NCBI GenBank assembly: GCA_043808155.1 | Contig: JAZDFD010000024.1 | Location: 1 to 64,000, forward strand | Reading direction: 5' to 3' | DNA length: 64,000 nt | DNA from: Candidatus Iainarchaeum sp. | Lineage (GTDB): Archaea; Iainarchaeota; Iainarchaeia; Iainarchaeales; JAZDFD01 | Shown here: in pieces, positions 51,733-57,480 of the stretch | Layout: each line of letters begins with the position of its first letter | Position numbering within the stretch: position 1 is the first letter of the stretch | The notes under the pieces: model-generated | The model's database searches: none | Told to the model about the DNA's origin: nothing | The model's input: only the letters and a program-made list of their open reading frames with translations | Made by a program: the position numbers and the translations under genes

Positions 51733-52959
51733 ATGGCTGAGCAAAAACGCGTACTGGTAATGTGCATTGACAGGGACGATGACCTGGGCAGAAAAACAAC
51801 TATTCAGGGACCTGTTATAGGCAGAGAAAAGAATCTTAATGCAGCCACTGCTTTGGCTTTGCAAGACCCTACAGAGGCAGATGCAAACACAATGTTTGCA
51901 ACTGTTAAGAAATATGATGAATTAAAGAAAATTTATACGGATATTGAAATTGCTACAATTACTGGACACGGGAAAATAGGGTTTCAGGCAGATAAAAAAA
52001 TAAATGAACAGCTTGATTTTGTGTTTGAACAGTTTCCTGCAGATTCAATTGTTTTGATTACTGACGGCATGGAAGATGACCAAGTAATCCCAATTCTTCA
52101 GGGGCGTGCAAAAATAATTTCAAAAGAAAATGTAATTATAAAACAGGCACAGGCTGTTGAATCAACTTATTACACTATTAAAGAAGTACTTAAAGACCCT
52201 GATATTGCAAGAATTGTTTTTGGAATTCCGGGTTTGGTTCTTTTACTTTATGTTGCACTTGGAAGTTTCTCATTGCAGATAATTTCATTTATTTTGGGTG
52301 CGTATCTATTGCTTAAAGGATTTGGAATTGAAGAAAGAATTCTCAGAGCCTTTAAATACATTACACAAACAGTTTCAATTCACAGAATTTCATTCCCATT
52401 TTATATTGGAGGCGTAATTATTCTGAGTTTTGGTGTGATTACATCATACAATACTTACATATCAAACACAGCAACTGATTTGATTCTTCAGATTGCAAGT
52501 TCATTGCAACCGATATATGCATTTGCAACATTGAGTGTATTAACAATGATTTTGGGACGATGTATTGATGTGATTAATATAAAGAAGGCTTACAGATTGA
52601 GAAAATATTTTATGATGTCTATTTCTGCGTTAATGATTTGGTTAATTTTTGATTCTGCAACATTAGTTGTTCTTAGGCAGGCAGATTTGAATTGGTTTTT
52701 ATTTACGATTGCAATTTCATTTGCAGTTCTTTTGGTGTCATACAGAGTTTCAGCAATTATTGATGTGAGAAAGAAAATAACAAAATTGCTTATTGGTTTG
52801 CCGGTTTACAATGAAGAAGGAATCTGGGTTGGCAAAGTTTCTGAAATAAATAAAAAAACTGATTCAGTTACATATCAAGATATCAGAGATAAAACAGAAA
52901 AAAGTGCAAAAAGAAAACAGTTTTTACTCCGCGACGGAAGAATTCTTATACAGCGATAG
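51733..52959 (+). CDS. DUF373 family membrane protein with C-terminal PRC-barrel-like domain
   Basis: [26 protein letters not shown] motifs. Confidence 0.9.
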
Positions 52960-54376
52960 TTTTCTTAGCTACTTTTTTTAGAATTTTTGGTTTTTCGATT
53001 TTTTTAACTGTACTTATTATATTTGTAAGGCTTTTTATCATCGCATTTTTTCTGCTGTGTTTTACAAATGCATTATTCAGAACATCAGTTAGTGTTTTTA
53101 CGGGAATTATTTTTATTTTCTTCAGTTCAGATGCAGACAAAATAATATCTTCAATATTTGATGCAGGCACAATTAATTCCTCAAAACCTGCTGCAATTGC
53201 GGCTAGTGTTTTTGCAGTTACTCCGCCTACAGGCAAAACATCACCCCTAACACTTAATGAACCTGTCATTGCAAGGTTTTGTTTTATTGGGATTCCTTCC
53301 ATTGCAGAAATTACTGCAGTTGCAACTGAAACAGATGCTGAATCGCCCTCAACACCCTCATAAGATTGTAAGAACTGAATATGAATATCATGTTTTGAAA
53401 CATCTTTTCCTGAAATCTTTTTTATGATTGCAGAAACATTCTGAACTGCTTCTCTTGCGATTTCCCCTAATTTGCCTGTTGCAATTAATTTTCCTTCAGA
53501 TTTTGATGCCGCAGGTGCAACCTCTGCCTCAATTGGCATTACAATACCAGCGGAGCCGTCCACAAAAACTGCTAAACCATTTACCCGTCCAACAACACTT
53601 CCGATGCTTTTGTAGACTTCGTAATCTTTTTTTTGCTGAATCATTTCATCAACCATCTGCTGTTCTAAAGTTCTTGCAGACATTTTTGCCTGATAGAGAT
53701 CTTCAACATCAACAAACTCATGGCCTTTTTCTTTTGCAATGTCTCCTGCTGCTCTTACAAGTCCTCCGATGTCACGAAGTTTCAGAGTTAATCTGTTCTT
53801 TCGTCCTGCTCTTTTCTTTGCTTCGAAAATTATCTGTTCGACTGCTTCTCTTGTGAAGTGCGGGATTTTTCCATCTTTTTTAACTTCCTGTGCAACTAAC
53901 TGAACTAAATTGTCTCTGTTTTCTTTTGTGTCAGGCATATCAACATTCATGTAAATTTCATAACCATAACCGCGTATTCTTGAACGTAAAGCAGGGTGAA
54001 CTTTTTTCAAATCATCATAGTTCCCTGCTGCAACCAAAACAAAATCACATGGGACTGCTTCTGTTCTTGTCATTGCACCACTTGACATTTCTGATTGCCC
54101 TGTAATGGCATATTTCTTTTCCTGCATTGCAGTAAGAAGTTCCTGCTGTGACTTCGGGCTTAAAGTTGCAATCTCATCAACGAAAAGAACACCTCCTGAA
54201 GCTCTGTGAATCATTCCGGGCTCAACTCTTAAGTGTGGTGGTGTTCCAAGACCGCCTGAGTTATGCACTAAAATGTCTTCTACAAAAAGGTTTCCAGTTT
54301 CTGTTGTGACATTATACACGTGTCCTTTAAAATCACGTTCAGATTTAGATTCAAATTTAGATTTACTTGCTTTCAT
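52946..54376 (-). CDS. lonB: LonB protease C-terminal half: split intein IntC (39 aa) plus C-extein (Walker B, AAA lid, Ser-Lys protease domain)
   Basis: MKASKSK...[60 protein letters not shown]. Confidence 0.95.
54260..54376 (-). mobile_element. Split intein C-fragment (IntC, 39 aa)
   Basis: Own ATG; block F VYNVTT; block G VHN followed by Ser+1. Confidence 0.93.
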
Positions 54377-54401
54377 GATATATAAATACAGGAGTGAAAG
54401 G

Positions 54402-54409
54402 AATAAAAA
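54402..54409 (-). promoter_or_regulatory. Putative TATA box for the LonB C-half
   Basis: TTTTTATT preceded by A-rich GAAAACAAC, 25 nt upstream of ATG 54376. Confidence 0.4.
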
Positions 54410-54454
54410 GGTTGTTTTCAGCTTTTGTTAAGTTTTGATTTTTTTAGTGTCGAA

Positions 54455-55304: not shown

Positions 55305-56351
55305 TTATGTCAAGTGGATAGTTTTGCTTTGTTCTGTTTCTACTTTTAGCAGTTCTTTTCCAAGTTTTTGCTTTTTTCTTTTGTATTTTATTGCGATTTC
55401 AATTTGTTCATATGTGCGCCTTTTCTTGTCTTTTGCATAAATCAAGGGGAAAACACTATCAAAGAATAAAACTTTGTGAAAATGTGTTCGAAAGAAAATT
55501 CTGAAACAATGGCTAAAATTACCATCTTTTCTCAGTGTTTTCTTGCTGAAATCTTTTCTAATATTTGGAGTTGTGTCAACACCAACAGATTTGCACAATC
55601 TTTTAAGGCTTTTAAGAAAGGTGATATGCTTGCCCTCAAGTTTTTCAATCTTGCTTAAACCTAATGTTAAATTTGTGAAACGATAATTTCCGCGATTGTC
55701 AGATCTCCAAGAAGGAACAGAAAATTCCGAAGAAATTAAGCCATCAAGAAATGCTATTCTTATTTTTTTGCTTAAGGAAAGAATATTTTTTGGAGGCATA
55801 TAGGGGGTTGAAACTTTGTCACCAACTGGCACTCCCAAAGCAACAAACAATCTTATGGCAGCTCTGTCAAAAGTTCTAATATTATAAGAGTGACCATATT
55901 CGCCACCCTCCACTATGTTAATTTTATTTTTAACAAAAGGAAATATCTCGATAAGATTTTCTTTGAAAATTTCAATATCTTCGATTTTAGAAGAAATAAA
56001 AGCCAGTGTATTTAATCTTATATCAATTCCGCCATCCCCAAACAACATACCCATAATTCTAAATATTTCTTTTATGTGCTTGTGTTTTGTAGTAAGAGGC
56101 AGAAAGCCTGCTTCTTTTAGTTTGTCAACAGTTTTCAAAGGAATTGGTTTTCCTCTTTTATTAGTTCTAGTGTGCCACCATCTTATTCTTCCTTGTGGAA
56201 CTCCTAATATTTTTGCACATCTTTTGTAACCAAAACTTGGATTTTCTTTAACCAATTGCAGATATTGCTTGTATTTTTTGCAGGATTCAATATCATAATC
56301 GGAATATGTGTTAATGATGTCTTGCTCTGTTACCAACTCTCTAGCTGTCAT
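55305..56351 (-). mobile_element. Free-standing LAGLIDADG homing endonuclease (intein-type) with N-terminal HTH
   Basis: GYKRCAKILGVP HTH, IMGMLFGDGG and AFLDGLISSE motifs. Start placed at Met43 of the tracked ORF (ATG 56351) because of an upstream TATA box. Confidence 0.88.
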
Positions 56352-56372
56352 ATAAAAATTACGATTTTTGCA

Positions 56373-56379
56373 TTTATAA
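56373..56379 (-). promoter_or_regulatory. Putative TATA box for the free-standing endonuclease
   Basis: TTATAAA about 22 nt upstream of ATG 56351, the spacing seen for leaderless genes elsewhere in this window. Confidence 0.5.
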
Positions 56380-56448
56380 GTGCTTTGAGAGCACATTTCC
56401 GGTAAACTCCAGTCAAGACTTATTCCAAGTTTCTTCGAAGAATAAGAC

Positions 56449-57480
56449 TCATCTAAAATTAGCAATTGCAGAAGCAATTACTTTAATCTCTTCAAGAAGA
56501 ATTAGATTATCTCTTTCAGAAATATTTTCTGCTTCTTTGCTTTCTTTTGAAGTGAAGACTTTGTGTTCTGGAGTTAGAGAAACTGTTTTTTCTCCGACTT
56601 TAATATCAACTAGCTTACCTTCAAATGGTTGTCTATTTAAAGAAAGAATTCTTGAAACAACTGGCTTTCCTTCTTTGTAACCTATAGTATAAAGCTCTTC
56701 TCCTGGGGGGAGCATTACTGCTTCGTAGTTCTTCTCGTTTCTTTCAATTAAATGTTTATATTTGGAATTGATGTGAGACCATAATTCAATAAATGTAATC
56801 TCCTCAAATTGAGCTCCTTTTCGCAAATAAAGCTTGGAAAAGCCGTAATTACACTGAAGCGGGTCATGTCTAACGTCCCCAAGCAATGAACCTGCTCTTG
56901 CACCAGTTCCTTCAAAAAAGGGAGCAATTTTTTTCTTATCATTATCAATCAAAAGTTTTGGTGATTCGTTTCCCACTTTTGTTCTTAACTGAGACCCCAG
57001 CATTGTTCCGACAACTAAAAATCCGCCCAAAATAATCATTGCTGCAAATACAACATCCGGCACCCACCCCATTTGCCATACAACACTTGCTAAAATAAAC
57101 CAGCCAATTGGAAGAATCAAACTAAACAATCTCATATTGTCTTCTTCTTTTTTTGATTCAAGTCTTTCTTTCTGCAGAATTTTCTGCCCTTCACCTGCTT
57201 TTACAACTTTTACTTTTGGGTTGTTTGGGTCTGCAGCATTCGGATACATTAAAACATCGTGTAATTTCTGAACTGGGAGAATTTCAGCCATTCCCTGTGC
57301 TAACATTGATTTTCCAGTTCCCGGAATACCCACAAGCAGAACATTTCTTTTTTGAGCTGCTGCTTTTTTTATTAATTCAACACTTTTTTCCTGACCCAAA
57401 ACCTGATTTATGGTTTTTTCAGGAACATGAATTTCAGCAGTAGTTTTGTAATTTGCAGGGATTTGTGACATATAATACAT
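56449..57480 (-). CDS. lonB: LonB protease N-terminal half: N-extein (Walker A, two TM helices) plus split intein IntN (134 aa)
   Basis: QVLGQE, GIPGTGKS, two TM segments, GSLLGDVRHDPLQ|CNYGF...LTPEHKVF...stop. Confidence 0.95.
   Translation of the reverse strand: MYYMSQIPANYKTTAEIHVPEKTINQVLGQEKSVELIKKAAAQKRNVLLVGIPGTGKSMLAQGMAEILPVQKLHDVLMYPNAADPNNPKVKVVKAGEGQKILQKERLESKKEEDNMRLFSLILPIGWFILASVVWQMGWVPDVVFAAMIILGGFLVVGTMLGSQLRTKVGNESPKLLIDNDKKKIAPFFEGTGARAGSLLGDVRHDPLQCNYGFSKLYLRKGAQFEEITFIELWSHINSKYKHLIERNEKNYEAVMLPPGEELYTIGYKEGKPVVSRILSLNRQPFEGKLVDIKVGEKTVSLTPEHKVFTSKESKEAENISERDNLILLEEIKVIASAIANFR
56452..56853 (-). mobile_element. Split intein N-fragment (IntN, 134 aa)
   Basis: Cys1 follows HDPLQ; block B TPEH; ends at TGA 56449-56451 with no blocks F/G. 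Confidence 0.92.

Follow-up and report, generated by a model that had tools for sequence, protein, structure and literature searches.

A probable natural split intein in an archaeal LonB protease, with a free-standing LAGLIDADG endonuclease gene between its halves

Natural split inteins are, to our knowledge, few in number, and they form the basis of protein-ligation tools. Those we know of occur mainly in DNA-metabolism enzymes, in cyanobacteria, phage-like metagenomic sequences and one nanoarchaeon. The natural split intein of the DPANN archaeon Nanoarchaeum equitans sits in the DNA polymerase PolB and has dispersed halves; we know of it from this one organism, and of no endonuclease associated with it. 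Here we describe a lonB gene from another DPANN archaeon, Candidatus Iainarchaeum sp., that is broken in two within an intein. The gene lies in a stretch of 64,000 nucleotides (nt), hereafter the window (positions 1 to 64,000 of JAZDFD010000024.1, assembly GCA_043808155.1), which is contig 24 of a 1.08-Mb metagenome bin that is 88% complete. We hold it to be highly probable that this single lonB carries a naturally split class-1 intein between HDPLQ and SGGLGTP, that the intein splices in trans, that it descends from a contiguous intein and that it belongs to a cassette that spreads.

Conserved genes broken by split inteins (fractured genes) have been reported from 26 loci in marine metagenomes by Dassa et al. 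2009 (PMC2677866). Contiguous inteins of LonB are also known, and Novikova et al. 2016 (PMC4760082) list 10 of them in Euryarchaeota. Passages of two further papers (PMC6801210, PMC8966425) treat the conserved endonuclease-insertion site of inteins and the presumed loss of the endonuclease domain; those passages describe no fractured intermediate with a free endonuclease. The initial annotation of the window knew of no split intein in a Lon protease, and the full-text literature likewise yielded no report of one in Lon or in Diapherotrites/Iainarchaeota, subscription journals and supplements lying outside the search.

The insertion site itself is a familiar one. Among 19 long LonB proteins examined, 16 have a contiguous intein between HDP[FL]Q and SGGLGTP, with Asn as the last intein residue, which bears out the initial annotation's statement that inteins occur at this site in Thermococcales. 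The hosts are LonB proteins of Pyrococcus, Thermococcus, Archaeoglobus, Micrarchaeota, Woesearchaeota and Diapherotrites (e.g. Pyrococcus abyssi, P. kukulkanii, Thermococcus nautili, T. zilligii and Archaeoglobus profundus). The remaining three comprise two C fragments of the split type and one protein uninterrupted at the site.

Two genes for one LonB protease

The window encodes lonB as two minus-strand open reading frames (ORFs), 56449–57480 (343 amino acids, aa) and 52946–54376 (476 aa), which are listed exactly where the initial annotation had placed them. Between the N gene's stop codon and the C gene's ATG lie 2072 nt. The N gene encodes an N-extein with the Walker A motif (GIPGTGKS), a hydrophobic stretch and the terminal sequence DVRHDPLQ; it then runs into the N-terminal part of the intein (IntN), whose tail reads ANFR before a TGA stop codon at 56449–56451. 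The C gene starts with MKASKSK, the beginning of the C-terminal intein part (IntC), and passes at SGGLGTPPH into a C-extein with Walker B (VLFVDE), the AAA lid and the Lon_C protease domain (Pfam Lon_C, 7.9e-32; LonB_AAA-LID, 2.7e-9).

Joined, the two exteins (209 + 437 residues) make a protein of 646 aa, and the proposal that they restore a complete LonB holds against both family model and structure. Along the 608 positions of TIGR00764 (NCBIfam), the N ORF covers 3–199 and the C ORF 193–606; the AAA+ module and the Lon protease domain are complete only when both exteins are taken together, and the C half alone scores 653.8 bits (cut-off 516.6). Placed on the LonB structure 4zpx, the N profile runs to residue 218 and that of the C half begins at 217. 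The N-extein matches the LonB structures 4zpx and 3k1j up to profile position 202, and the C-extein profile matches residues 180–598 of 3k1j. The split arrangement is far beyond chance, recurring in 48 other genomes.

The splicing residues are intact in the window, as initially annotated: Cys1, block B (TPEH), the penultimate His, the terminal Asn and Ser+1 can all be read directly, the last three as the junction HN followed by S. They are also widely kept among relatives. The residue after HDP[LF]Q in the split alleles is Cys in 22 of 44 and Ser in 21 (one allele is cut by a contig end), i.e. a Cys or Ser nucleophile in 43 of the 43 readable alleles; three contiguous inteins of type A have Thr at this position. 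Block B reads TPEH in 41 of the 44 alleles and TTEH in one, with none found in two, and T303, E305 and H306 are invariant in alignment A2. All 31 split alleles that include the C-terminal junction have Asn followed by Ser, and the penultimate residue in these is His (24), Ser (4), Cys (2) or Lys (1). IntN is 122–146 aa long among split alleles, and IntC, 39 aa in the window, is 37–50 aa in relatives (median 41), with 13 of 39 positions invariant and a mean column identity of 68% (alignment A3).

The intein also shows likeness to contiguous inteins of LonB. Its split point is the canonical endonuclease-insertion point, and a contiguous relative (genome G031) has an endonuclease between the two corresponding parts. 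A blastp search connects IntN to contiguous LonB inteins, and the IntN profile (alignment A2) matches the KlbA intein 2jmz (E 1.4e-6). Judged from sequence, the natural split intein is real, and the two halves would splice in trans.

That the halves find each other is predicted by ESMFold2 models of IntN (residues 200–343 of the N ORF) with IntC (residues 1–60 of the C ORF), in three runs with three controls. The interaction prediction score from aligned errors (ipSAE) was 0.88, 0.88 and 0.87, and 0.00 for the best control; of 80 solved complexes, 58 reach the ipSAE mark applied, as do 2 of 110 mismatched pairs. Contacts agreed between runs to at least 81%, the predicted local distance difference test (pLDDT) of the partners was at least 68, and residues 1–39 of IntC all fall in the predicted interface with IntN. 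The IntN and IntC halves are thus predicted to associate, with the caveat that the score may reflect likeness to, or memory of, solved complexes, because split-intein complexes have been solved before.

Both genes appear to have promoters of their own. Boxes were named after the archaeal TATA consensus, and a TATA-like word starting between −36 and −22 precedes 28 of 33 genes for IntC-LonC, compared with 8 of 66 equally wide control windows; these words cluster at −27 to −31, so that the box of the IntC gene is conserved in position. A like word stands at a like distance before the endonuclease genes of many relatives, and similar boxes occur upstream of many N genes, endonuclease genes and PLC (phospholipase C)-like genes. 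A further conserved box resembling CACCGG(A/C)AA (56385–56405, minus strand) lies about 45–55 nt upstream of many endonuclease genes, before the TATA-like word, and could be either a regulatory site or a remnant of coding sequence.

Genes between the halves and lonB alleles of relatives

The initial annotation had seen about 2 kb of other genes between the halves. The interval and its genes are there, with two minus-strand ORFs above the listing threshold of 50 aa, but one of them is hardly foreign to the intein: it is a LAGLIDADG homing endonuclease. It has an N-terminal, helical region like those that bind DNA and two LAGLIDADG-like motifs (MLFGDGGID and AFLDGLISSE), and D106 and E209 are invariant in a 16-sequence alignment. 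Its AlphaFold 2 model (pLDDT 89.5) led Foldseek to I-Tsp061I (E 3.6e-8), followed by the TliVMA intein, PI-SceI, I-DmoI and PI-PfuI, all with probability 1.00. The protein thus combines two motifs bearing acidic residues with, in the predicted model, the alpha-beta-beta-alpha-beta-beta-alpha fold of this class. Among sequence models, the endonuclease part of RtcB_rel_intein (NCBIfam) matches at 4.3e-18 and Pfam LAGLIDADG_3 matches 4 of the 16 aligned members (best E 5.6e-5). Pfam gave no match for the window's own copy and a sequence search of the PDB with the endonuclease profile found nothing; the fold search decided the identity.

The origin of this gene is suggested by the contiguous LonB of G031 (1158 aa), along which the N ORF corresponds to 27–354, the endonuclease ORF to 355–603 and the C ORF to 707–1157. 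The endonuclease has 35% identity to residues 355–603 (E 8e-41). Given this homology and colinearity with the domain of the contiguous intein, the ORF appears by sequence and predicted fold to be the intein's own LAGLIDADG endonuclease, now a separate and presumably active gene. It is separated from the IntN ORF by 97 nt and from the IntC gene by 928 nt that contain another gene. The only paralogue in its own genome is one weak match, inside a contiguous intein on contig 28. Among viral contigs, 124 pattern matches to the endonuclease alignment turned up, of which none was confirmed.

The other ORF is a passenger resembling Zn-dependent PLC; it has His and Asp residues that are invariant, and a TATA-like box of its own. 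Of the 35 complete split loci, 7 carry a homologue in the interval (G129 two of them), and the gene may be cargo of the cassette. Foldseek found no significant fold match for it (best E 0.24; model pLDDT 74.6), and NCBIfam gave no match. A hydrophobic ORF of 33 codons (MKIGLAMALTG..., 54455–54556, minus strand) follows it, before the IntC gene.

Fractured lonB is not peculiar to this genome. Queried with IntN alone, 52 of 215 genomes of the phylum gave a match: 47 in open frames no longer than 440 aa, two in frames of 822 and 827 aa that have an extra upstream intein and still end after IntN, and three in contiguous inteins (frames of 1124–1158 aa). Fractured lonB is thus found in 49 of the 215 genomes. 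The whole N ORF matches in 186 of 196 genomes of the order, mostly in intein-free alleles, because the matches cover only residues 1–211 in frames of about 625–780 aa; six rows among them are contiguous inteins, of two types. Among candidates of near length, 348 N-ORF-like proteins have E ≤1e-20, and the source names attached to such proteins include Candidatus Diapherotrites archaeon and Candidatus Iainarchaeum. All three states for which the initial annotation had proposed to search related genomes (intact, contiguous-intein and split) are present, and the fracture is widespread, apparently as a mobile cassette.

We mapped 50 split loci, 35 of which are complete, i.e. with both halves on one contig, 170–4711 nt apart. 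The complete loci hold a full-length endonuclease in 23 cases, a broken one in two (a frameshift in G093, an in-frame stop in G141), a remnant in two and none in eight. Since the endonuclease is broken, partial or absent in 12 of the 35, mobility is not a trait of every copy, which counts against a cassette that is mobile throughout. The halves of G016 are on different contigs, the downstream flank of IntN (about 2.4 kb) and the upstream flank of IntC (about 3.5 kb) holding unrelated genes.

Evidence for spread comes from comparing trees. The C-extein tree (43 rows) follows host families, and on it the split label changes 14 times, at least 7 of these changes being forced by well-supported branches. 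Its clustering is no better than shuffled (239 of 500 shuffles were as low), and forcing the 23 split hosts into one clade costs 378 units of log-likelihood (approximately unbiased test, p-AU 2e-75). Sister pairs of a split and an intein-free allele occur within genera: G172/G027, G039/G012 and G173/G003, with support of 99, 99 and 98 in the Shimodaira–Hasegawa-like approximate likelihood-ratio test (SH-aLRT). The 25 free-standing endonucleases, on the other hand, form one clade (99), whose sister is the set of endonuclease domains from the three contiguous inteins of type A (98). Grouping within the clade cuts across host families, and the copy in the window groups with that of G050, of another family (98). 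Host and endonuclease trees, as reconstructed, disagree. In G144, G152 and G158, the synonymous divergence (dS) of IntN is 0.07–0.17 vs 0.78–1.05 in the flanking N-extein. These observations agree with a single, ancient fracture and a later lateral spread of the cassette, for which homing by the endonuclease would be the obvious and most likely mechanism.

Several relatives show variants of the arrangement. Between the halves in G009 (locus L036, 3598–4593, plus strand) lie an opposite-strand ORF of 332 aa and an endonuclease remnant of only 60 aa. Two genomes from other orders of the same class are unusually tight: in G213 (L086, 3697–7191), IntN, endonuclease and IntC are three overlapping ORFs in different frames, and in G214 (L085, 4642–7211), the N and C ORFs overlap without an endonuclease. 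They may be recent fractures, or else contiguous inteins with simple frameshift errors. The genomes compared are metagenome bins, and two of them hold two lonB alleles each, probably through a mixture of strains: a split and a contiguous type-B allele in G134 (contigs 43 and 44; L059, L081), and two diverged split copies in G050 (contigs 146 and 148; L083, L084).

Table 1. Positions in the window of the features of the split lonB locus
Feature	Position	Strand	Basis or remark
TATA-like box TTTTTATT	54400..54407	-	24–31 nt upstream of IntC-LonB ATG
LonB C-extein, 437 codons + stop	52946..54259	-	Residues 210–646; starts SGGLGTPPH
IntC, 39 codons with own ATG, blocks F/G	54260..54376	-	ORF listing, alignment
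Passenger ORF, 230 aa, PLC-like	54565..55257	-	Pfam PF00882, E 4e-7, 30.6 bits vs cut-off 26.8
Free-standing LAGLIDADG homing endonuclease (predicted)	55305..56351	-	348 aa from ATG 56351, likely start
TATA-like word TTATAAA	56373..56379	-	22–28 nt upstream of endonuclease ATG
IntN, 134 codons + stop	56449..56853	-	Cys1 in CNYGF, block B in SLTPEH
LonB N-extein, residues 1–209	56854..57480	-	ORF listing, TIGR00764 positions 3–199

Further inteins were seen in lonB and in the genome. Five relatives (G009, G025, G035, G001 and G127; loci L036, L037, L038, L039 and L054) have a second split intein about 70 residues into the C-extein, so that their LonB would come from three polypeptides through two different split inteins. 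Its IntN2 is fused to its endonuclease in one ORF of 622–665 aa in the same five genomes, and the stop of that ORF overlaps the start of the IntC2-LonB ORF by 1–17 nt in 5 of 5. At least two more LonB sites, one in or next to the Walker A loop and one about 13 residues after SGGLGTP, hold contiguous inteins, sometimes beside the split one; examples are L039 1390–2890 (G001), L078 (G174) and L051 1824–3557 (G047), and the proteins P0121, P0125, P0187, P0217 and P0230. Elsewhere in the window, the coordinates 5480–9598 (+), 16881–18311 (+) and 3876–5219 (−) jointly cover three further frames: an MCM-like ORF of 1372 aa with two contiguous inteins (the first of these positions) and, for the other two positions, an intein-bearing frame of 873 aa and a free-standing protein of 447 aa with repeats like the helix-turn-helix and a LAGLIDADG match. 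The whole assembly has 12 matches to intein models and 14 to LAGLIDADG models. A cursory look revealed no obvious gene halves beside four of the other LAGLIDADG-matching loci of this genome (three of them with short free-standing frames).

Proposed mechanism and its alternatives

We propose that two precursors, LonB(1–209)-IntN (343 aa) and IntC-LonB(210–646) (476 aa), would be made from separate promoters. The hydrophobic stretch of the N half, read in the light of the membrane location that we take LonB to have, suggests that the first precursor is probably membrane-anchored and that assembly takes place at the membrane. IntN and IntC would then combine into the HINT (Hedgehog/intein) fold, in which Cys1 would start an N–S acyl shift and Ser+1 would attack, using the Thr and His of block B, and cyclisation of Asn39 would free the intein halves. 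The product would be the 646-aa LonB, with Walker A from one gene and Walker B and the protease domain from the other. Neither half alone has both Walker motifs, and activity should therefore depend on ligation or at least on tight assembly. As to origin, a contiguous bifunctional intein at the same site would have fractured, its LAGLIDADG domain becoming a gene of its own between the halves, and the resulting three-part cassette, at times with a passenger gene, would spread by homing into intein-free lonB alleles. Splicing activity, endonuclease activity, homing as the mechanism and membrane anchoring are the steps that we infer.

Selection on the parts is consistent with this scheme. The median ratio of non-synonymous to synonymous divergence (dN/dS, Nei–Gojobori; pairs with 0.05<dS<2) is 0.29 in IntN, where 275 pairs out of 946 could be used. 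IntC, taken together with 21 extein residues, has 0.12 (102 of 465 pairs), the endonuclease 0.26 (50 of 378), the N-extein 0.20 and the C-extein 0.13; the values are rough because most pairs are near synonymous saturation. None of them suggests relaxed selection, and by this measure both halves and the endonuclease are under purifying selection. The initial annotation had also proposed to check for a second intact lonB. The family model found none in the genome, where it matched the two halves and one protein with Lon_C only (contig 14, 56 bits); a second copy could lie in the missing part of the 88%-complete assembly.

Some observations speak against our interpretation. Curated intein models score the window's IntN below their cut-offs (Pfam Intein_splicing 17.3 bits against 35.8, TIGR01445 19 bits against 24.5), and the penultimate His is replaced by Ser, Cys or Lys in 7 of 31 split alleles, the window's copy not being among them. 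Eight sequencing runs matched the stretch, with a best share of 0.31 of its words, and none of them is recorded as RNA. Public contigs over the region (from four runs) are 150–860 nt long and none spans the fracture; the assembly is therefore neither confirmed nor questioned by them.

It is improbable, in our view, that the two LonB halves work as a non-covalent complex in which the intein halves merely dimerise without splicing. The tight interface predicted between IntN and IntC would suit plain association as well, and so would the seven alleles lacking the penultimate His. Against this, residues of use for the chemistry alone are kept (Cys or Ser in 43 of 43, T-x-x-H in 42 of 44, Asn and Ser+1 in 31 of 31), many active inteins are without the penultimate His, and a HINT domain of about 170 residues, sitting between the two Walker motifs of the AAA+ module, would be likely to interfere with the ATPase. 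Still less probable is a decaying pseudogene in which insertions have disrupted a former contiguous intein, even though about 2 kb including unrelated ORFs interrupts the gene and DPANN genomes are reduced. The reading frames of both halves are open, purifying selection acts on them as strongly as on the exteins, and neither relaxed selection nor frame-breaking mutations were found in the halves across relatives. The split arrangement is kept in 49 genomes of many families, IntC is among the best-kept parts (see above: 68% identity, 13 of 39 invariant), the C half has its own conserved promoter-like box, and a backup lonB was not found in the assembly.

We give the least credence of all to an artefact or a recoding event, i.e. 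an assembly or sequencing error in a contiguous intein, or programmed frameshifting or bypassing. In its favour, the open frame of the endonuclease extends 29 nt back into the tail of the IntN ORF, simple frameshifts are possible in G213 and G214, where the pieces overlap in different frames, and the fracture is spanned by no public contig. Yet in the window the pieces are clearly separated (97 nt from IntN to the endonuclease, 928 nt with a gene before IntC), and each has its own ATG and TATA-like box. Moreover, 35 independent assemblies differ in spacing (170–4711 nt) and content, with an opposite-strand ORF in the interval of G009 and the halves of G016 on separate contigs. A split intein that splices in trans, derived from a contiguous one, remains the reading we prefer.

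Comparison with known split inteins

If our reading is right, a membrane AAA+ protease of an archaeal lineage joins the hosts of split inteins, and about fifty natural IntN/IntC pairs, in Cys1 and Ser1 forms, are there to be mined. About half of these combine Ser1 with Ser+1 and are candidates for cysteine-independent split inteins; cysteine-less split inteins are called rare in the abstract of PMC11923092. The locus would also represent a second route to fractured genes. That is, the intein's own LAGLIDADG domain would become a gene, where invasion by a foreign endonuclease had been thought likely for earlier examples. We think it reasonably likely that the locus captures split inteins in the making, a bifunctional LAGLIDADG intein now in three genes that still homes across DPANN families and gains passengers, with all later stages of decay (a broken endonuclease, a lost one, dispersed halves) and a three-polypeptide LonB among its relatives. 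As contiguous, fractured, endonuclease-less and dispersed alleles occur in one order, the origin of split inteins and the homing cycle become directly testable.

Contiguous LonB inteins share the identical insertion site, and their IntN and IntC parts are weakly similar to those of the window; they differ in forming one polypeptide with their host, whereas the window's intein is divided over separate genes. The PolB intein of N. equitans is likewise a natural split intein of a DPANN archaeon, and differs in its host, its dispersed halves and the absence of an endonuclease.

The fractured genes of the marine metagenomes are alike in that a split intein divides a conserved enzyme gene. The endonucleases in Dassa et al. 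belong to the GIY-YIG or Vsr-like families, and the term LAGLIDADG is absent from their text, in contrast with the endonuclease of the window; this is a difference of variant that leaves the working of the system unaffected. Three further differences stand out. The window's endonuclease is, unlike theirs, homologous to and colinear with a domain of the contiguous intein at the same site, the host is an archaeal protease, and IntN is 122–146 aa long, as against 88–105 aa.

The natural split intein of the bacterial DNA polymerase III alpha subunit is likewise split at the endonuclease-insertion point, its C half has about 35–40 aa, and both precursors are needed for one enzyme of the essential type. 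Its halves are far apart and without an endonuclease, whereas in the family of the window the halves are mostly 1–5 kb apart and a full-length endonuclease lies between them in 23 of the 35 complete loci.

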